Sequence record: NC_041919.1
Origin: Escherichia phage HP3
DNA: 64,000 nt
Strand: one strand, 5' to 3'
In this document: positions 4,728 to 42,340 of the stretch, piece by piece
How the letters are laid out: each line of letters opens with the position of its first letter
How positions within the stretch are numbered: position 1 is the first letter of the stretch
The notes under the pieces: model-generated
What the model saw: the letters and a program-made list of their open reading frames with translations, nothing else
The model's database searches: none
What the model was told of the DNA's origin: nothing
Translations under genes and position numbers: made by a program

Positions 4728-6278
4728 TTAGTAATGAACTTTAATAATATAGTTTAATGATATATTCCATGGTCTAGTTTCATAACCAATTAATCCTTCA
4801 CGATTAAGTGTACCATGAGCATCTCTCGGTCCACCTAATTCAAATCCATCATTAGTGAAGTATGAAGCATTATCCCAGTCGGAATATTTTCTAGTTCCAA
4901 GATATCCTTGATAAACTGACGCGCCAAATGGGCCTTCACTTCTGTTATATTCACCCCAACCACCAGCATGTTTATGGTATGACATTTGTTGTGCCTGAAC
5001 ACCACCAACATGCATTCCGTCACATCCTACGCCCAGTCTATCCTTTCCATAGCCATCTTGTCCACGTTGATTTAAAATATGACCGCCTGTGCCGGCTCCT
5101 CTGACGAAAAGACCCCGCATATCAGGAACGCCAGGATTATTCCAATCGCCACCAAATCTTGTTCCAACTACGTTTCTATAATCAGGAAATTGGTCACCTG
5201 ACACGGTTCCACCATGACACATAATCCAACCTGGAGGTGCTGAATCACCCGCAAACATCATAATAGTTCCAACCGGAACTCGTTCGGACGCATATCTTTC
5301 AGTGGCAACAGGTTGATCGCCATTTTTCCACATTCCACCGCGTGACCAAATTCCATTTGCTGTAAGATGGTCTAAATTTAAAGAACCATTAATAGTTTGT
5401 CCACCACGAGTATTAATTACATCTGCGTTCCATGCTAATGCTCCAGAGCTATCACCTTCAGGGGCAATACCGGCTTGCGTCGTTAATTTAACTACTCCAC
5501 GCATAGAACCGGTAGCTCCTCGACCATTTAGTGTTTCACCTGTTACTGCAACACCACCCAAATTATTATTAATTTCAGTCTGCGTTCCTAGGCGTATAAC
5601 ACCCTTATATTCATGTGTTGCAACAGAATTCATAAAGGTATACGGGGAAATTGCATATCCTTCGCGGAGAGTTCCTTGACGAATTTGTGCAACAGTAGAT
5701 AATTGAACTACTCCTCTCACCGATTCTGTTGCAGTGTCTTCTGAAGGAGCTATTTGCGAAATTAATTTTATTGCAAGTTTTTGGGTTTTTAGCGGAGTCA
5801 TCGCAGTAGTATCATCAACTCCAGCCAAAGCTGCAGGTGTAGATGATATTTTAATAACCCCGTTTGATGACTCAGACGAATATCTATTTTTGAACACATC
5901 GTCAGTGTGGTATTTCAGTTTTTGTGGTGTTATTGATGAATTATTATCTGAGCCTTTTAATGTTTCTTCATTTGTTGAATAACGCGTTAAACCATATTTA
6001 GTTTCAGTAGCATTTGGATACAATAATCTTGTTGCTAATGTAGCTGGTGTAACGATTTTAGAATTATTAGTTCCATCTAAAACCTCTTGCTCTGACGCAA
6101 TCATTGCTATTCCTTTAACTTCCATAGTTGCATCAGGAATACCATTTACGCCGATATTACTTATTTTTGATAATGCAGACTGTACTGTCGTAACAGTGCC
6201 AGGAAAATTCGATCCAGTAGGATCGAATTTAACATATTTTGATTCATTTGATACGTGCTGATATGTATTGTTACTCAT
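4728..6278 (-). CDS. 12: Short tail fibre gp12
   Basis: 516 aa (T4 gp12 about 527 aa); position between gp11 and wac. Confidence 0.8.
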
Positions 6279-6952
6279 GCTACTCTCTCAAAATAATAAA
6301 ATACTGTAGGTTGTGTGTGACTATCTAGCGTAACAGTTTGCGCACCTAATAATTGCCAAGTTCCATACCCAGGTTTAGAAGGAGAAATTATTTCCTGTTT
6401 GAAAGTAATTCCTTTATCAGAGTATTGTTCTAAGATATGTTCTTGGTTATCTAAATACTTAACTTGTATTTTATTTCCTATGGTAGGATGGTCTTCAAAT
6501 GAATCAATTGCAATAAATTTTACAACCATTTCCTGTAGAGCTATTCTAACGGCACTAGTAAATTCAATTGAAGTCATTCCATTAGTAGCTTTAACTGGAA
6601 TACCAAACATGTTAACAATAACTGGGTCACCTGATTTGACTGAAGTATCAGTAACAGTTCCTTCAAATGACCAATAGTCGGTTTGTTGCACGCCAGTAGG
6701 AGATACGCCGCTTATATTAACTAATACAGCTCCAACCGGTTGCTCTGCCATATTTCTAACATCATTGATAGCAGATTCTACATTCGGGTCATAAAAACCT
6801 TTTGCTATTTGTGAAATTGTTACAGCGCCTACTGGCTGATTATTCATAACCGAAATATCATTTTTCTTAGTTCTAAAACCAAGAAAATCTGCTAAGCGGG
6901 AAATAACTCCCGCTTTATTATTAAGTAAACTCATTATGCAATCCTTATCCAA
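6275..6952 (-). CDS. 11: Baseplate wedge protein gp11
   Basis: 225 aa; synteny. Confidence 0.75.
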
Positions 6953-8739
6953 CGGTATACAGTAATAGACGGTTGAATATTACTAATATTAGTAGGAGGA
7001 GTATGTGAAGAGTTTGTTGTTGCGTAGTCTTCACGATATTTTGTATATATAGGACCAGTTTCGTCTGGGTCATATTGACAACCTCCAATAATAACTGATC
7101 CGTTTTCATCTTCAATTAAAACTTTTTCATCAGTTTTAGTCGCAGGAAGATTTGCGTTCTCAAGTGTCACCGATGTTGTTCCAACTGTTCCACCGGCAGT
7201 ATGTGAAGGATTTCCGCTAGAATCTAAATCATTATTGTTTAAAGCAAAGTTTGGATCCGTAACATCATCATTCCATCCTACTAAAACTTGTCCTTTACCA
7301 AATAATTTCCATGAACCAAATCCCATATAAGTCACCGGATTATTTGGATTTATAGCATTTTCATAAATTGAACCTACAGGATAAATGCTATCGAAAATAG
7401 ATGATATTGAATTATACGTTCTAGTATAAGAATCAACTTTTTCAACATTTGGCCAACCGATTTTATCAAAATCTGTTAAGGCTACATCACCAGTAACTTC
7501 GGTAGATGATCCTTTACTAACATAACGGTCATCCGTTAATTCAATGATGTCATCTTTTTCTAAAAGAGTTCCTAAATCATTATTGAACCACGTTATAACG
7601 ATTATATCACCTGATTCAAATTTTCTATCAAATAAAAGACTAACAGGTTTTCCATCTTCATATTCTATAGAATAATCTGTGTTAGATTCTTTCCATTCAC
7701 CACCAAGAGATATACATCCTGCTTGCGTATCTGAGTTAGCACCTTCACACAAAAACAGAGGATATCCTGCTGTTCCAGCTTGTTGTTGTAAAATTCCATT
7801 AAAACGAACTTCAAGAGAATTAGGATTAATAGGTTCTCCAGGAATTAATCCAAATGCAGAGAATGGAATTGATTTCATTGTTGATAAATCAGTAACGTAA
7901 ATACTTCCTTCTAAAGAAGTTTTTGACGTTAATTTTGAATCTAATACTTTTATTTGGCGTCTTGTATATGAACTTCTCCATTGTGATATACCATCCATAA
8001 ATGTTTCAATTTGAACAGTGTCACCAATATTACAAGGCTGTCTTAACCTAATATTAAATCCATCAAGAGGAATCAATTCTCCTTCATTTTCCCCAGGAGA
8101 GCCAAAGTCACTGTTTTCACTAAATACATCGCCGTAATATAATTCATTACCACGGTGTTTTACTCGGATGTTATTAACATTATAGCTAGTTCCGCGGAAA
8201 ACATCTAAAAAGTCTGTTTGTCCTTGAACTTCGACTAAAAATTCTTTACGTGCTACATTACTAATATCTGAACTAATAATTTTGTCAATTTGTTTGTTTT
8301 TGACATATTCCCAACGTCCTGGAGCACAATAAACGAGCTCTAAATCACTAAATTGAATATTAATTTCAACTGACGATGACGACCCTTTAATTGTATCCCC
8401 AGAAGCAGCTACTAAAGTAACTGGATTAATGTTCCATGTTGCAAATACATCCCTAGCTCTAATTACTTTATTATAATCATTAACAGTTCCTTTAGGAAGT
8501 TGTAAAGTTACTCTTCCAGAAGAGGTATTAATAGCGTATGATTTTCCCCACTTAGCTTTTAATGTTTGACCGGATGAAGCATTATAAGTTTTCCAGGCAC
8601 CGGCTGAATATGGAACATCTCCATCGCCAAGTTCATAATAAAGTTCATCAAAGTTTTCATTTATTTTTATACCACCTTTACGCAGGTAGTCACCGGTACC
8701 ATCATCAACAACATTACCGATATTAATATTTTGTTTCAT
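6934..8739 (-). CDS. 10: Baseplate wedge protein gp10
   Basis: 601 aa (T4 gp10 about 602 aa); synteny. Confidence 0.8.
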
Positions 8740-9605
8740 TATTGAGCCACCCCGATTTTCTGCGTAGCGATAACTTTAACTGCTGCTCTCATACCGACAG
8801 TTGAAGAACTTATAGTTGCCGTTACATAATTTTCTTTAATACTAAATGCAATATTAGCGATTTCGTCTTCTTCTGTTTCATTTCCAACCCGCATGACAGC
8901 ATATTCAGAAGAAATGACCGCTGAATTAACAGTATCTACAAGAATATTTATTTCTGCCGTTTTAATTTTTCTTCCATCTACTGATTGGCATGTAACTAAC
9001 AATTTAGCCATGTTATATTCAGTACGATGAAACAATGGAATGTCAACTGACCCAGATGTAGAAATATTCCATGTACCTTCGGCCGGTGATTCCTTTTGAC
9101 CAAACATACTTTCAATAGAATAATTCCAAACCGACGTAGAATTATCAGATGAAATACAACGTAAAGTAACTTTACTATATGGACTAGTTACTACTAAATT
9201 ACCTGAAACGCCTTTAATTGAATCAATAGCCTGAATCGTTAAAGGATTAGTAACTGATATTGATCCATTAGAGTTAATGAATTCAACACAATCGCCAAGT
9301 TCTCCTCTTTCAATAATAACTTTAACACCTACAGTAGAGGTATCAATATCATGTCTAGTGCCAACTTTCACTGGAGTTGCGTACTCCGCGATAGAGTGCT
9401 TTTGATAATATCCAGTAGCATGGATAATTTGACCATCTGCTCCAGTGCCATTTGCTACTGCCATTTTACGCTGATCGCCAAACGCATTATAAATTGCGTT
9501 AAAATCACTATTAATTTTATTACCACCGTCGAATAAGATATCACCAGTAGAAGCGTTACCAATTTCGCCGGTATCAATCAATTTCTTTGGTTCTTGAATG
9601 AACAT
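8739..9605 (-). CDS. 9: Baseplate wedge / long tail fibre attachment protein gp9
   Basis: 288 aa, same as T4 gp9. Confidence 0.8.
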   Translation of the reverse strand: MFIQEPKKLIDTGEIGNASTGDILFDGGNKINSDFNAIYNAFGDQRKMAVANGTGADGQIIHATGYYQKHSIAEYATPVKVGTRHDIDTSTVGVKVIIERGELGDCVEFINSNGSISVTNPLTIQAIDSIKGVSGNLVVTSPYSKVTLRCISSDNSTSVWNYSIESMFGQKESPAEGTWNISTSGSVDIPLFHRTEYNMAKLLVTCQSVDGRKIKTAEINILVDTVNSAVISSEYAVMRVGNETEEDEIANIAFSIKENYVTATISSSTVGMRAAVKVIATQKIGVAQ

Positions 9606-37686: not shown

Positions 37687-37710
37687 AGTCTCCTTCGGGA
37701 GACTTTTTTC
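37687..37710 (+). terminator. Intrinsic terminator
   Basis: agtctccttcgggagact hairpin followed by tttttt. Confidence 0.6.
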
Positions 37711-37720
37711 ATTTTACCGG

Positions 37721-37749
37721 TTTACTTTCCATTTGAGCTGTGATACTAT
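37721..37749 (+). promoter_or_regulatory. Early promoter
   Basis: -35 tttact, 17 nt spacer, -10 tactat, conserved leader acaactatc. Confidence 0.55.
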
Positions 37750-37777
37750 ACAACTATCGGATAAAGAGGAGAACATC

Positions 37778-37966
37778 ATGAAAATTGAAGCACTTAATCA
37801 AGAAGGAAATATCTACGTCATCATTAATGGTGATTTTTTCGTCGACATGGATGAAGTTACTAGTGAAGAACTTGTAGAACTTCTTAAGAAACGTTATGAT
37901 ATGTGTGATGAAGCTGCAACTCATATGGCGTGTGCAATATTCTCTCTTTCATATGTGGTGGAATAA
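37778..37966 (+). CDS. Hypothetical small acidic protein
   Basis: 62 aa from ATG after SD aagaggag. Confidence 0.4.
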
Positions 37967-38169
37967 TGACTAGAATTGAACAAGCAGATAAAATTAAAGA
38001 ATTGGTAGCTTTAATTCGCAAAGCAGATGAGGAACTTAGTGACTTTGCTTGGTTTTCGGCAGGCATTGCAAATAAAGGTATTGAAAAATTTGAAGCTAAA
38101 GTTGATAATGCTTTAGAAGCGTTAGATATGTTTCTTGATGAAATTATCGATCATAATACGAGAGTTTAA
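37966..38169 (+). CDS. Hypothetical small helical protein
   Basis: 67 aa; ATGA overlap. Confidence 0.4.
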   Translation: MTRIEQADKIKELVALIRKADEELSDFAWFSAGIANKGIEKFEAKVDNALEALDMFLDEIIDHNTRV

Positions 38170-38171
38170 TT

Positions 38172-38366
38172 ATGCTAACACGTGAACAGTTTGAAAAAAT
38201 CATTAAATTAGCACGTGATATTGAAATAGATTCATACCAATTAGCAGTTGAGCATTGTGAAGGATATTCATACGACGGTATAGAAGCAGCTAAAAAGGAT
38301 TTGGATAAATCCAAAGCTAAGTTAGTTCAATATCTTGAAATGATTAGGTGGAATAATGAAAACTGA
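38172..38366 (+). CDS. Hypothetical small helical protein
   Basis: 64 aa. Confidence 0.4.
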   Translation: MLTREQFEKIIKLARDIEIDSYQLAVEHCEGYSYDGIEAAKKDLDKSKAKLVQYLEMIRWNNEN

Positions 38367-38529
38367 AAAGCAGATGTTTTTAATGAAGCTAATTGAAGAA
38401 TATGCTAATGCAGTTTCTGACTATGAGTATTCTGCTCGGGAAAGAGGTACAGCTTTCGCAAAGGAAGAAATGAAAATCATGGTTGATGCTCACACAAAGC
38501 TTCAGAATTTTATTGAAAACGTCATTTAA
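38353..38529 (+). CDS. Hypothetical small protein
   Basis: 58 aa (MKTEKQMFLMKLIEEYANAV...). Confidence 0.35.
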   Translation: MMKTEKQMFLMKLIEEYANAVSDYEYSARERGTAFAKEEMKIMVDAHTKLQNFIENVI

Positions 38530-38532
38530 TGG

Positions 38533-38561
38533 TTTACAAGTTGACAAGATTATGATATAGT
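38533..38561 (+). promoter_or_regulatory. Early promoter inside a 13 bp-stem hairpin (PeSL-type)
   Basis: -35 tttaca, 17 nt spacer, -10 tatagt; perfect inverted repeat gttgacaagatta / taatcttgtcaac across 38541-38574. Confidence 0.6.
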
Positions 38562-38589
38562 AATCTTGTCAACTGCCAAGGAGAAGAGA

Positions 38590-38694
38590 ATGAAAGTTTT
38601 GTTTGTTGTGTATGTGATGATTCAATATAATTATCCAATGTTTACTTATAATCTGGTGAACAACATTATTGATATTATTCAAAGGAGTATGTAA
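38590..38694 (+). CDS. Possible 34 aa hydrophobic leader peptide
   Basis: MKVLFVVYVMIQYNYPMF... preceded by SD aaggagaag. Confidence 0.25.
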   Translation: MKVLFVVYVMIQYNYPMFTYNLVNNIIDIIQRSM

Positions 38695-38696
38695 TT

Positions 38697-39254
38697 GTGG
38701 GTGAGTCGAAGAGAATCAATATGAAACGATTAGTATTAGAAGTTAGTCCGCTTTTTGGTGAATTAGCTATAGAAAAAGTAAATAATATGTATCGTTTGAC
38801 ACAAGAAGACGATATGCTATATTTTACGCCTAGTGAAATCATTCATTTAACCCAAATTGAATATCCTTATACTGATAAAATAGTAAGCATCAATGATGAG
38901 CACAAAATTCATTTTTATTCTTCATGCCCAGGATTTAATATTAAAAGTGAGTCAATGTGTTTATCAGTTATCCATTGGGATAGCTTTATAGCTAAGATTA
39001 AATATTTTTATTATTCTAATGAAAGAAAACATAGTTTAAAATGGCTCAAAAATTGCAATGCTATTATTACTAACGCTTGCAATCAGAATGATGAAACTGT
39101 TTTAAACGTATCAAAATGCTATGAAGATGGTGATGTCTTAACTATTCGTCAAATTGATGATTTTCGATCGTATATTGTCACATTTACCAAAGACGAAGCT
39201 ATTGCGCTAAAGACTTATCTCGATTCTGTCATTCCAACTATGATTTCAAAGTGA
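38697..39254 (+). CDS. Hypothetical protein, paralog 1 of a pair
   Basis: 185 aa, GTG start after SD aaggag (alternative ATG at 38721); C-terminus KDEAIALKTYLDSVIPTMISK resembles the next ORF. Confidence 0.45.
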   Translation: MGESKRINMKRLVLEVSPLFGELAIEKVNNMYRLTQEDDMLYFTPSEIIHLTQIEYPYTDKIVSINDEHKIHFYSSCPGFNIKSESMCLSVIHWDSFIAKIKYFYYSNERKHSLKWLKNCNAIITNACNQNDETVLNVSKCYEDGDVLTIRQIDDFRSYIVTFTKDEAIALKTYLDSVIPTMISK

Positions 39255-39260
39255 GGAAAT

Positions 39261-39782
39261 ATGTTTATTTCAAGTGGAAGTGGTTTAATTCGTGTTGAAT
39301 TTAAAAATGACATCTTCCTTATTCAAGGAGATGATATTATTAAAATGAGTTATGATGAAATTAAGAAAATTTGTAATGCTCTTGAAAGTCATGGAAAAGT
39401 GAACGCTGTTATTGATATTGGTGATTTATGGGTGACACTTTATGAAGTATCCGAAGGATTTAATATTGAAGATGAAAACAACATCTTAGCTATTGATAAA
39501 AGAAGCGATTTGTTTGATGTGTTAAAAGTTTATGAACAGTCAAACGGTGGAAGAAAAGCTGTATTGATTTATCAAAAACCACATTCATGTGGAACTGCTT
39601 CAATCATTTCAGATATTGAAGATGAAACTGATACTTATATGTGTGTTTTAAAAGCTGGTGGTGACCGTCATCCGGATTTTATTTCTATTCGTCAAAACAA
39701 TGAAGAAATTTCATTATCAAAATCAGAAGCTGAAGCTATGATTAAGTATTTAACAACTGTTACACCTTCAATGAAAGGATAA
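39261..39782 (+). CDS. Hypothetical protein, paralog 2 of a pair
   Basis: 173 aa; C-terminus SKSEAEAMIKYLTTVTPSMKG; shared IRQ segment with the upstream ORF. Confidence 0.45.
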   Translation: MFISSGSGLIRVEFKNDIFLIQGDDIIKMSYDEIKKICNALESHGKVNAVIDIGDLWVTLYEVSEGFNIEDENNILAIDKRSDLFDVLKVYEQSNGGRKAVLIYQKPHSCGTASIISDIEDETDTYMCVLKAGGDRHPDFISIRQNNEEISLSKSEAEAMIKYLTTVTPSMKG

Positions 39783-39784
39783 TT

Positions 39785-40246
39785 ATGATTATTAATGAAA
39801 ACTCTTGGCACTATAAATTATTCAAATTGTTTAACGATGAATGGCAACGACCTAAGACGCTGTGCGCATACTTTTGGTCTATTGTTATCCCTACATTTTT
39901 CGTTTCTTTTTTCGGATGTACTATACTCGTAGGTCTAACTATCATCTGCGCAGAAATCATACAGAAATGGCTTATTTTTGGTAGTTTATGGACTCTTATT
40001 CCATCAGCATTTATACTTGCCATTTTGCTTGTTTTACTTATTGTCGGTTCATTTGTTATTCCTGCACAACTGCGTGAAAAATATAAAGATTATAAATGGA
40101 AAAAGGATTATGCTTTACACGTAGAAAATATTGATAGGGCGTATAAAGGTTTACCTCCTATTCAACCCAAGAAATCGATTATCGTTGAATTTTTAAAAGC
40201 TCGTAAAGCTAAAGTATGTCCTGTTATTGAATATAAGGCTGAATGA
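39785..40246 (+). CDS. Membrane protein
   Basis: 153 aa; two long hydrophobic segments then a basic tail. Confidence 0.45.
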   Translation: MIINENSWHYKLFKLFNDEWQRPKTLCAYFWSIVIPTFFVSFFGCTILVGLTIICAEIIQKWLIFGSLWTLIPSAFILAILLVLLIVGSFVIPAQLREKYKDYKWKKDYALHVENIDRAYKGLPPIQPKKSIIVEFLKARKAKVCPVIEYKAE

Positions 40247-41256
40247 TGAAAACAGTAATGAAAAGCTATTTTGGTAGTCATCTTTATGGAACTTCTACCC
40301 CAGAATCTGATGTAGATTTTAAAGAAATCTTTGTTCCTCCTGCTCGTGATATTCTTATCGGAAATGTTAAAGAGCACATGAGTAAAAACACTAACAACAC
40401 ATCATCTAAAAACACTAAAGATGATATTGACCATGAACTATACAGTCTTAAATATTTCTTTAAATTAGCAGCAGATGGTGAAACTGTAGCGTTAGATATG
40501 CTTCACACTCCACCTGAACTAGTGGTTAAATCTGATTTGCCTGATGTGTGGAAGTTTATTCAAGACAACCGTTCTCGTTTTTATACGACTAACATGAAAT
40601 CCTATTTAGGATATGTCCGTAAGCAAGCTTCTAAATACGGCGTTAAGGGTTCTCGTTTGGCTGCATTACGTGATGTATTGAAAGTAGTTAATCAAATCCC
40701 TGAGCAATGGGTTGATTACCAAGAAGATGGTTCTATTAAGCAGCGTCGTACTAAAGTTGAAGATATTAAGCATCGTCTTCCAGAAAACGAATTCTGTGAA
40801 TGGGTGTTCCATAATCATGAGAAAACAGGCCCACAGACGTTCTACACAGTGTTGGGTCGTAAATATCAGACAACGCTTTCTCTTATTGAGCTTAAGCAGT
40901 CACTGAACAAATTAGATGCTGAATACGGTGAACGTGCTCGTAAGGCCGAAGCCAATGAAGGTATTGACTGGAAAGCTATGAGTCATGCTTGCCGTGGTGG
41001 ACTCCAACTATTGGAAATTTACAAAACTGGTGACTTGGTTTATCCACTCCAAGATGCTCCATTTATTCTCGACGTGAAGTTGGGTAAACATCCATTTAAA
41101 ACGGTTCAAGAGTTTTTGGAAGATGTGGTCGATCAAGTAGAAGCAGCATCTACTGAAGCTTCTAAGAACGGTATGCAGCAAAAAGTAGACATGGGTTTTT
41201 GGGATGACTTCCTTGAGAGGGTTTATCTTGAAAACCACCGAAGTTATTATAAATGA
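40243..41256 (+). CDS. Pol-beta-superfamily nucleotidyltransferase-like protein
   Basis: 337 aa; N-terminal YFGSHLYGTSTPESDVDF fits the GS-x(9-13)-D-x-D nucleotidyltransferase signature. Confidence 0.5.
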   Translation: MMKTVMKSYFGSHLYGTSTPESDVDFKEIFVPPARDILIGNVKEHMSKNTNNTSSKNTKDDIDHELYSLKYFFKLAADGETVALDMLHTPPELVVKSDLPDVWKFIQDNRSRFYTTNMKSYLGYVRKQASKYGVKGSRLAALRDVLKVVNQIPEQWVDYQEDGSIKQRRTKVEDIKHRLPENEFCEWVFHNHEKTGPQTFYTVLGRKYQTTLSLIELKQSLNKLDAEYGERARKAEANEGIDWKAMSHACRGGLQLLEIYKTGDLVYPLQDAPFILDVKLGKHPFKTVQEFLEDVVDQVEAASTEASKNGMQQKVDMGFWDDFLERVYLENHRSYYK

Positions 41257-41258
41257 TA

Positions 41259-41285
41259 GGGAGCCTTCGGGCTCCCTTTTTTTAT
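41259..41285 (+). terminator. Intrinsic terminator
   Basis: gggagccttcgggctccc hairpin followed by a 9 nt T-run. Confidence 0.65.
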
Positions 41286-41308
41286 TTCAAAAATTTTTCA
41301 CAAAATTG

Positions 41309-41337
41309 TTTACAAGCATAAAGCTTTATGGTACTAT
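41309..41337 (+). promoter_or_regulatory. Early promoter
   Basis: ttcacaaaattgtttaca, -35 tttaca, 17 nt spacer, -10 tactat, leader acaactatcaact. Confidence 0.55.
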
Positions 41338-41370
41338 ACAACTATCAACTGATACGGATTTGGAGAATAA

Positions 41371-42340
41371 AATGAAAACTGTAACTATCAATAAGGGTAT
41401 CTACTTCGGTAAAGAAATCTCTGGAACTTTTGAGCTCTTAGGTGAATGGTTCCCAGATAATGCTCCGGTAGATGCACAAGGAGATGGTAAAGTTTTTGTT
41501 GAAATTGACGGTAAGCGTCGCGGTGTTTGGGTTTACAAATCAGACATTTCATATGATGGTGTAAAAGTTGAAGAAGTTAAAGAATCGTATGAAGATATGA
41601 AAACCCGCATTAATAAAAGATTTAATGTTATGGGAATGATGACGAATGGTATTATTAACGGAAACATTCGTTCATTAATTATCTCTGGTGCGGCGGGTAT
41701 TGGTAAAACGTATTCTTTAGATAAAGCTTTAAATAAAGCAAATGATATTGGATACATTGAATATAAAAGCATTAATGGTAAAATCTCTGGTATTGGTCTT
41801 TATGAGCAGCTTTGGAATAATCGTGAAGAGAATTCTGTACTTTTGATTGATGATGTGGATGTTTTCTCTGATATGGACATTCTTAATCTTCTGAAAGCTG
41901 CTCTGGACACCGGAGAGACCCGCAAAGTCTGCTGGAGCACTGCATCTTCTTACTTAGAAGAAAAAGGCATTGAGCGTGAGTTTGAATTTAAAGGAACGAT
42001 TGTTTTTATCACAAACGTTGACATTGACCGCGAATTAGACCGTGGTACTAAACTTGCTCCACATTTACAAGCATTAGTTTCCCGCTCGGTTTATTTAGAT
42101 TTGGGTGTTCACACTAATGAAGAAATTATGGTCAGGGTTGAAGATGTTATTCTTTCAACTGACATGATGCAAAAACGCGGTCTTTCTGATGAAGAAACTT
42201 ATAAAGCATTATCATGGATGAAAGTCAATGTTAATCGTTTACGCAATGTTTCACTGCGTACTGCACTTTATCTTGCTGACTTTATTATGACCGACAAAAA
42301 CGGTTGGGAAGAAATCGCTGAGGTTACTCTTCTGAAATAA
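41371..42340 (+). CDS. AAA+/P-loop ATPase
   Basis: 323 aa from ATG after SD ggagaa; Walker A GAAGIGKT, Walker B LLIDDVD, sensor-like FITN. Confidence 0.55.

Follow-up and report, generated by a model that had tools for sequence, protein, structure and literature searches.

In the 64,000-nucleotide stretch of the genome of Escherichia phage HP3 that we analysed (NC_041919.1; hereafter the window), positions 38,533 to 41,285 correspond to a cluster of early genes that is already annotated, mobD.2 to nrdC.11 of a T4-like phage (Tequatrovirus); the original prediction had not recognised this long-known T4 locus. The last gene of this cluster, nrdC.11, encodes a Pol-beta nucleotidyltransferase of the RlaP family, which by analogy with its relatives probably adds nucleotides to RNA 3′ ends in the service of tRNA repair. 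The block, mobD.2–mobD.1–(y05I paralogue)–(membrane protein)–nrdC.11, sits in the non-essential tk-nrdC 'hyperplastic' region. Its 2.75-kb sequence is 100% identical in Escherichia phage HP3.1, and 653 phage records, almost all from Tequatrovirus, contain matches to it; the gene names used here come from the RefSeq annotations of T4 and of fFiEco06, a 99.4% identical relative. The genes, the enzyme family, the proposed role in tRNA repair and the class of hairpin-associated promoter found in front of mobD.2 are thus already in the literature, and the Pur-alpha-like modelling of the y05I proteins is one modest addition to these known facts. All features described below lie on the + strand of the window unless stated otherwise, and related loci are cited by their L numbers.

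The gene nrdC.11 (40243–41256) encodes a protein of 337 amino acids (aa), shortened to 336 aa if translation begins at the second ATG. This protein passes the Pfam model RlaP (PF10127) with 44.3 bits (gathering cut-off 23, E 2.4e-11), its residues 7–135 aligning with positions 23–142 of the 249 in the model, and it matches the PHROGs family phrog_388, labelled 'nucleotidyltransferase', with an E-value of 7e-137. PF10127 is carried by all close NrdC.11 homologues, and an exhaustive search retrieved relatives in 3429 clusters at 50% identity, the best-scoring of which are mostly full-length. Its assignment to the nucleotidyltransferases, as COG3541, dates from 2006. Its catalytic motif reads G11-S12-x10-D23-x-D25; in an alignment of 58 homologues (33–54% identity), these four residues are invariant, and conservation reaches 90% or more at three further aspartates, D61, D63 and D85.

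An AlphaFold model of NrdC.11 built on this alignment of 58 homologues is of high confidence (predicted local distance difference test, pLDDT, 94.3; predicted template modelling score, pTM, 0.83). The GS pair lies at the turn between strand 3–10 and helix 12–15, the DxD motif heads strand 24–31 and D61/D63 head strand 62–68, a placement that reproduces the arrangement of the Pol-beta active-site sheet. The GS turn and the DxD motif on the next strand are thus accompanied by a third conserved carboxylate, for which D61, D63 and D85 are the candidates. The nucleotidyltransferase domain is N-terminal and is followed by a helical C-terminal domain, the layout expected of RlaP. The top matches among solved structures are HalB, 3c18 and kanamycin nucleotidyltransferase (KNTase), and the best matches are all nucleotidyltransferases. 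The original prediction, made from the DNA sequence alone, had proposed a Pol-beta-type nucleotidyltransferase on the strength of the motif, and was to be dropped if the predicted structure had no such fold or if the motif lay outside an active-site sheet. In the model the fold is present and the motif lies in the sheet, so that this assignment stands, in agreement with the Pfam match, the invariant GS/DxD residues and the structure matches. A beta-rich insert of five strands, residues about 155–209, separates the nucleotidyltransferase core from the helical domain and is modelled with high confidence; this insert falls outside the part aligned to RlaP and, judging from the model, may be a substrate-binding element of the phage subfamily. 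PDB sequence and profile searches with NrdC.11 returned no related chain, the library searched evidently being without the published RlaP crystal structure.

RlaP was named for the linkage of its gene to an RNA ligase. Since 2016 it has been predicted to replace, ahead of ligation, nucleotides that RNA ends have lost, for instance to RloC, an anticodon nuclease that cuts the anticodon loop and then excises the wobble base. This prediction has been extended to phages (PMC7824862). According to a December 2025 preprint, two RlaP enzymes from Pseudomonas extend RNA 3′-OH ends by one or two nucleoside monophosphates (NMPs), with a preference for Mn2+ and no action on DNA or protein; they also raise the aminoacylation of a tRNA religated after the loss of one nucleotide. 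The 3′-OH product suits ligases that need 3′-OH and 5′-phosphate ends, and T4 NrdC.11 was placed in cluster 5 of the family network, its function being called unknown (December 2025 preprint).

From the family, fold and catalytic motif described above, we infer by analogy the RNA substrate of NrdC.11 and its link to tRNA repair. By homology, NrdC.11 would extend an RNA 3′-OH by one or two NMPs in a template-independent manner, and would in this way restore the nucleotide(s) removed from cleaved host tRNA by 'excising' anticodon nucleases such as RloC. T4 polynucleotide kinase/phosphatase (Pnk) and RNA ligase 1 (Rnl1), a ligase of the 3′-OH/5′-phosphate class, could then reseal a full-length anticodon loop. 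We hold this reading, RNA 3′-end addition serving tRNA repair, with moderate confidence. In its favour we also count locus L083 (a 168-kb viral contig, positions 5001–9510), in which the genes of an ATP-dependent ligase and RtcB come after that of a NrdC.11 relative (40% identical), all on one strand and within 3.5 kb, an RNA-repair linkage that T4-type genomes lack.

Several points weigh against such a role. No gene for an RNA ligase, kinase or cyclase was found beside nrdC.11 in the neighbourhoods of T4 and fFiEco06 or in this window, so that the linkage that gave the family its name is absent here. NrdC.11 is a distant member of the RlaP family whose activity is assigned by homology: in the sequence similarity network of the preprint (E-value cutoff 1e-30) it falls in cluster 5 and the Pseudomonas enzymes in cluster 1a (December 2025 preprint). 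Only the core (residues 7–135) aligns with the RlaP model, the remainder, including the insert at about 155–209, being specific to the phage subfamily.

The same observations bear on what else the enzyme might modify. KNTase/ANT(4′), LinB, DrrA, GlnE and MNT-type enzymes are all among the structural neighbours of NrdC.11, the RlaP model matches the catalytic core only, and the C-terminal two-thirds, which would be expected to set the substrate, are subfamily-specific; these points would suit an enzyme that nucleotidylylates a protein, by AMPylation in the manner of DrrA, GlnE or MNT, or a small molecule, by adenylylation of a drug or metabolite in the manner of KNTase or LinB, for example a host factor early in infection. 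We consider this unlikely. Of the three roles suggested originally, the family evidence fits the nucleotide-tailing one alone. The other two fared less well. For a cGAS/DncV-like signalling enzyme there was no support, neither a PADLOC match nor a CD-NTase among the fold matches, and NrdC.11 has neither the sequence-model matches nor the cGAS-like nearest fold that would place it among the CD-NTases. That it makes a free nucleotide signal or an oligonucleotide, as cGAS/DncV-type CD-NTases or Hailong HalB do, and so mimics, drowns out or triggers a host defence signal, is very improbable, even with HalB among its top structural matches. An antitoxin-modifying enzyme of the MNT/HEPN kind was considered and set aside: NrdC.11 has 337 aa against about 100–150 aa for MNT, its gene is flanked by those of a membrane protein and an AAA protein rather than by that of a HEPN toxin, and MNT comes far down among the structural matches (Foldseek E 0.28).

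The block is preceded by an early promoter of T4 type at 38533–38561, with a −35 element (G)TTTACA, a spacer of 17 nucleotides (nt) and a −10 element TGnTATAGT (10/12 plus the TG of an extended −10), and with an expected start site near 38568. The promoter scan recovered it where the original prediction had placed a hairpin-embedded early promoter. The G before the −35 element gives the T4-type GTTTAC, and the combination of −35, TGn and −10 is typical of T4 early promoters (PMC2988021); the T4 copy is identical but for one base in the loop of the hairpin that surrounds the promoter. This hairpin (38539–38574) consists of a perfect inverted repeat of 14 bp plus one G.T pair, holds the −10 element in its loop and ends 4 nt upstream of the Shine-Dalgarno sequence AAGGAG. 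Its folding energy is −20.2 kcal/mol (z −6.5); with shuffled sequences as control, equally good folds were found in none of 200 shuffles, and none of 2000 reached the 14-bp repeat. Among the 18 promoter-like sites of the window, that of mobD.2 is the only one wrapped in a long repeat, the other sites having 6 bp at most.

Relatives of the hairpin were located at about 3392–3423 in L004, at about 3443–3473 in L005 and upstream of mobD.2 in L027. Four families of arm sequences were found in four lineages, namely AGTTGACAAGATTA in Tequatrovirus, TTGGTAGGACTA in Mosigvirus-type loci, ATGATGAGATA in Gelderlandvirus and GAGAGGGCAT in locus L027, and each time the −10 element is in the loop and a Shine-Dalgarno sequence lies a few nt downstream. 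Changes in one arm between lineages are compensated on the opposite arm, which keeps the symmetry while the sequence becomes wholly different. When the pairs were counted by script from the loop outward, each of the first 10 showed at least two different standard pair types, and four of the five non-Watson-Crick cells within these 10 pairs were G.T in the + strand sense. The compensated pairs and the orientation of the G.T pairs point to an RNA stem, formed in read-through transcripts.

This element is of a known kind, the promoter-early stem-loop (PeSL), a class described in 2010 for the T4-type phages RB49 and phi1 (Arbiol et al. 2010; PMC2839356). PeSLs combine an early promoter with a stem-loop, mostly located between the boxes or over the −10 box, and G-T pairs were noted in their stems (PMC2839356). 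The cassette before mobD.2 likewise consists of an intergenic sigma-70 early promoter with a stable stem-loop at its boxes, upstream of a Shine-Dalgarno sequence. RNA begun at the 38533–38561 promoter would be without the 5′ arm, and only RNA reading through from upstream would carry the whole hairpin, which by analogy with PeSLs would most likely attenuate or insulate this read-through. Against this attenuating role, the hairpin has no U-tract and is therefore not a canonical intrinsic terminator, and its supposed effect on read-through is borrowed by analogy from a different PeSL in a different phage.

The repeat could instead act as DNA, as a cruciform or as a palindromic operator that switches the early promoter. 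It is centred exactly on the −10 element in all four lineages, where an operator would be expected, and the shut-off of T4 early promoters still lacks an explanation (PMC2988021). We nevertheless regard a DNA-level switch as distinctly improbable. Arms that differ wholly between genera while their pairing is kept would be an unusual way for protein-binding sites to evolve, and the G.T pairs of the + strand are of the orientation tolerated in RNA. The hairpin is gone exactly at those loci in which a U-tract terminator precedes the promoter (L020–L023), and the promoter is missing as well at loci in which translation of mobD.2 is coupled to that of an upstream open reading frame, or ORF (L019, L024, L028–L031, L038). 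A reporter assay moreover showed PeSL stem-loops acting as terminators (PMC2839356).

At the 3′ end of the block, nrdC.11 is followed by an intrinsic terminator (41258–41285) made of a 4-nt loop closed by a stem of 8 bp, 6 of them G-C (stem-loop at 41258–41277), then T7, with a folding z of −3.6. The stem-loop is the same in T4, where T6 follows it, but a crude scan found a comparable terminator after nrdC.11 in only 9 of 83 related loci, indicating that it is not conserved across the wider family. Upstream, the gene rI.-1 is followed by another intrinsic terminator at 37687–37710 (7-bp stem and TTCG loop at 37687–37704, then T6) and by a second T4-type early promoter before mobD.5, at 37721–37749, with the elements (G)TTTACT and TGnTACTAT separated by 17 nt; this promoter was read directly from the sequence, being below the listing thresholds of the promoter scan itself. 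It serves mobD.5, mobD.4, mobD.3 and mobD.2a, and the terminator scan found no + strand terminator between it and 38533. Its transcripts thus read on through mobD.5–mobD.2a into the 38533 region, and the terminator-bounded unit is 37705–41285, with at least two early promoters. A promoter-to-terminator unit starting at 38533 had been proposed from the sequence; the strong terminator at its 3′ end is confirmed, while its 5′ boundary has to be given up. We expect host sigma-70 RNA polymerase to transcribe the block immediately after infection from the two strong T4-type early promoters, 37721–37749 and 38533–38561, and transcription would stop at the terminator 41258–41285. The next gene, the AAA gene nrdC.10, has its own early promoter at 41309–41337, after the nrdC.11 terminator. 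The region 37687–37760 forms a terminator/promoter/Shine-Dalgarno cassette before mobD.5 whose −10 element with its flanks (TACTATACAACTATC) is identical to that of the nrdC.10 promoter at 41309–41350. Such short identical promoter cassettes could act as recombination sites, as proposed for PeSLs.

The five tightly packed ORFs seen originally were all recovered at the same coordinates, with spacings of 2, 6, 2 and −4 nt, the start of nrdC.11 overlapping the stop codon of the membrane protein gene. Two of them encode the y05I proteins: mobD.1 (38697–39254; UniProt name y05I), with 185 aa from a GTG start or 177 aa from an alternative ATG at 38721, and a second, unnamed y05I-family gene (39261–39782; 173 aa). 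That these are paralogues of about 180 aa, as first noticed from the letters, is supported by BLASTP (27% identity, E 2e-8) and by two common Pfam families, T4_y05I_N and T4_y05I_C (PF24449 and PF24448; cut-offs 24.9 and 27 bits), which score 132.5 and 73.9 bits in MobD.1 and 119.6 and 83.3 bits in the paralogue. The y05I family is small, with about 60 clusters at 90% identity, and is confined to T-even-type phages.

The structural model of MobD.1 shows three beta-beta-beta-beta-alpha repeats with a Pur-alpha/Whirly/PC4-like fold; its N-terminal domain has a pLDDT of about 90 and its C-terminal domain, the third repeat, of about 60. In this model the repeats pair into the PC4-like domain that characterises PUR and Whirly proteins. 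The y05I proteins are thus predicted, on the basis of this model, to be single-strand nucleic-acid binders, and the modelled fold probably explains the Pfam label 'putative transcription factor'. This prediction provides a first functional handle on the family. In other genera the third repeat alone survives, as an ORF of roughly 75 aa, which in most loci stands directly before the membrane protein gene. One protein found in 6 contigs (P0281; compare 38721–39779 here) is a chimeric y05I whose N-terminal two-thirds are MobD.1-like and whose C-terminal third is of the paralogue type; it looks like the product of an unequal crossover between tandem paralogues that left a single gene.

The gene mobD.2 (38590–38694) encodes a conserved microprotein of 34 aa (phrog_3515) with a core, VQYNxPxFTYNLVN, that is conserved across genera. 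In some phages mobD.2 stands in the middle of an operon, translationally coupled to the upstream ORF and with no promoter in front. We reject the label of leader peptide first given to it, and with it a role in attenuation, because the peptide sequence itself is conserved and because of these promoterless positions. The unnamed membrane protein gene (39785–40246) encodes 153 aa assigned to phrog_944 only. The two helices originally predicted agree with its hydropathy, which gives two long hydrophobic stretches at roughly residues 27–60 and 62–98. The protein has the conserved motifs SWHY...P..LC.YFW at the N-terminus and KARK.K.CP at the C-terminus, and W8, H9, C27 and C145 are invariant in the family alignment. 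Judging from sequence, these four residues flank the hydrophobic core and could form a metal or redox site. In L032 and L039 the protein reaches about 240 aa, with about 95 unrelated aa added at the N-terminus. The membrane protein of L039 scores 19.9 bits, below the cut-off of 29.5, against Saf_2TM, the 2TM effector domain fused to SAVED.

The five genes might form a single machine, in which y05I binds an RNA substrate, the membrane protein anchors the complex and NrdC.11 tails the RNA. Their packing, with stops and starts overlapping or nearly abutting, could be read in this way, as could the predicted y05I fold, of a kind that binds single-stranded RNA or DNA. A y05I ORF, often reduced to the C-terminal repeat, lies close upstream of the membrane protein gene in 40 of the 83 loci, directly abutting it in most of these (the order is reversed in L075), and the membrane protein gene lies upstream of nrdC.11 in 50 of the 83, across several genera of Tevenvirinae. 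Yet gene order in Tevenvirinae is conserved whatever the function, many loci have other ORFs between the membrane protein gene and nrdC.11 (0.5–1.2 kb), and no fusion of any two components was found, the N-terminal extensions of the 240-aa versions in L032 and L039 matching no y05I model. T4 has lost the paralogue and the membrane protein gene to the mobD endonuclease but keeps nrdC.11 and mobD.1, and phages with a NrdC.11 of 54% identity or less mostly carry nrdC.11 alone. The accessory role first proposed for the neighbouring proteins thus finds no support. We judge a five-gene machine rather improbable, common transcription within a syntenic, hyperplastic region being the simpler reading. 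A narrower proposal, a speculation that we put forward with little confidence, would have the y05I proteins bind single-stranded RNA as viral proteins of Pur-alpha type and pass cleaved, trimmed tRNA halves on to NrdC.11; all of them, with Pnk and Rnl1, would carry out a nucleotide-restoring repair that defeats RloC-type nucleases. If this were true, a viral counter to RloC-type 'excising' anticodon nucleases would have been demonstrated for the first time, and the y05I proteins would give the first description in a virus of a Pur-alpha-like architecture with three repeats.

In T4, the HNH homing endonuclease gene mobD (L002 12430–13209, minus strand) stands where the y05I paralogue and the membrane protein gene stand here, the corresponding interval in the window being 39261–40246. 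The arrangement with both genes is commoner than that of T4 (448 phage records), and it appears that insertion of the mobD endonuclease displaced two resident genes in T4. Another insertion or deletion has occurred at a promoter cassette: close relatives, fFiEco06 among them, have two additional small ORFs after the nrdC.11 terminator and ahead of nrdC.10 (L001 6842–7251), one of them encoding a DUF4031 protein, where the gap here (41286–41371) and in T4 contains the promoter only. We also noted that misannotations have spread over many GenBank/RefSeq records. NrdC.5 to NrdC.11 are widely called 'thioredoxin', MobD.1 and MobD.4 are mislabelled 'molybdopterin-guanine dinucleotide biosynthesis protein MobD', and one NrdC.11 is mislabelled 'putative HNH homing endonuclease'; these wrong labels appear to have been copied from gene names and not from similarity. 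Scans of PADLOC and NCBIfam gave no match for any of the six proteins searched, and Rfam gave only two sub-threshold chance matches, L20_leader (27.7 against 58.7 bits, over the terminator) and HOTAIR_2.

As a discovery, this locus matters little; its value is as a test bed, nrdC.11 being a deletable early gene in a T4-type phage. A viable T4 deletion covers nrdC.11 to mobD.3 (PMC9825161), and the block is thus dispensable in the laboratory. The rescue by RlaP of tRNAs short of nucleotides could therefore be given a clean genetic test in the very system, T4, in which RNA repair was discovered.

Compared with known systems, NrdC.11 resembles RlaP of Pseudomonas fluorescens and P. aeruginosa in passing the Pfam model, in its GS/DxD core with further conserved aspartates and in its helical C-terminal domain; it differs in aligning over the first ~135 residues only, in its additional beta-rich insert (~155–209) and in having no adjacent RNA ligase. 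With its nearest solved structures, Hailong HalB and kanamycin nucleotidyltransferase, it has the Pol-beta nucleotidyltransferase core in common and, with the latter, also the helical second domain. The y05I proteins show no detectable sequence similarity to the Pur-alpha/Whirly/PC4-like domains that their model resembles (4–13% identity), and their third repeat is modelled with low confidence. Like the PeSLs of RB49 and phi1, the cassette before mobD.2 comes after a stop codon and ahead of the following Shine-Dalgarno sequence, joins a strong early promoter of sigma-70 type to a stable stem-loop that overlaps the −10 element, has G.T pairs in its stem and is located in a hyperplastic region of small non-essential genes. 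Its stem is A+T-rich, whereas the GGGG...CCCC type is common in RB49, and such cassettes are not dense here, where a single one of the 18 promoter-like sites in 64 kb has a stem of this kind. The closest known counterpart of the enzyme is T4 NrdC.11 itself (NP_049709), together with its Tevenvirinae orthologues. This is the same gene, with a product 99% identical to the representative of the T2/T4-group cluster, the same position between mobD.1 and nrdC.10 and the same terminator stem-loop, and nothing material separates the two phages here except the neighbours of nrdC.11, mobD in T4 and the paralogue and membrane protein genes in HP3.

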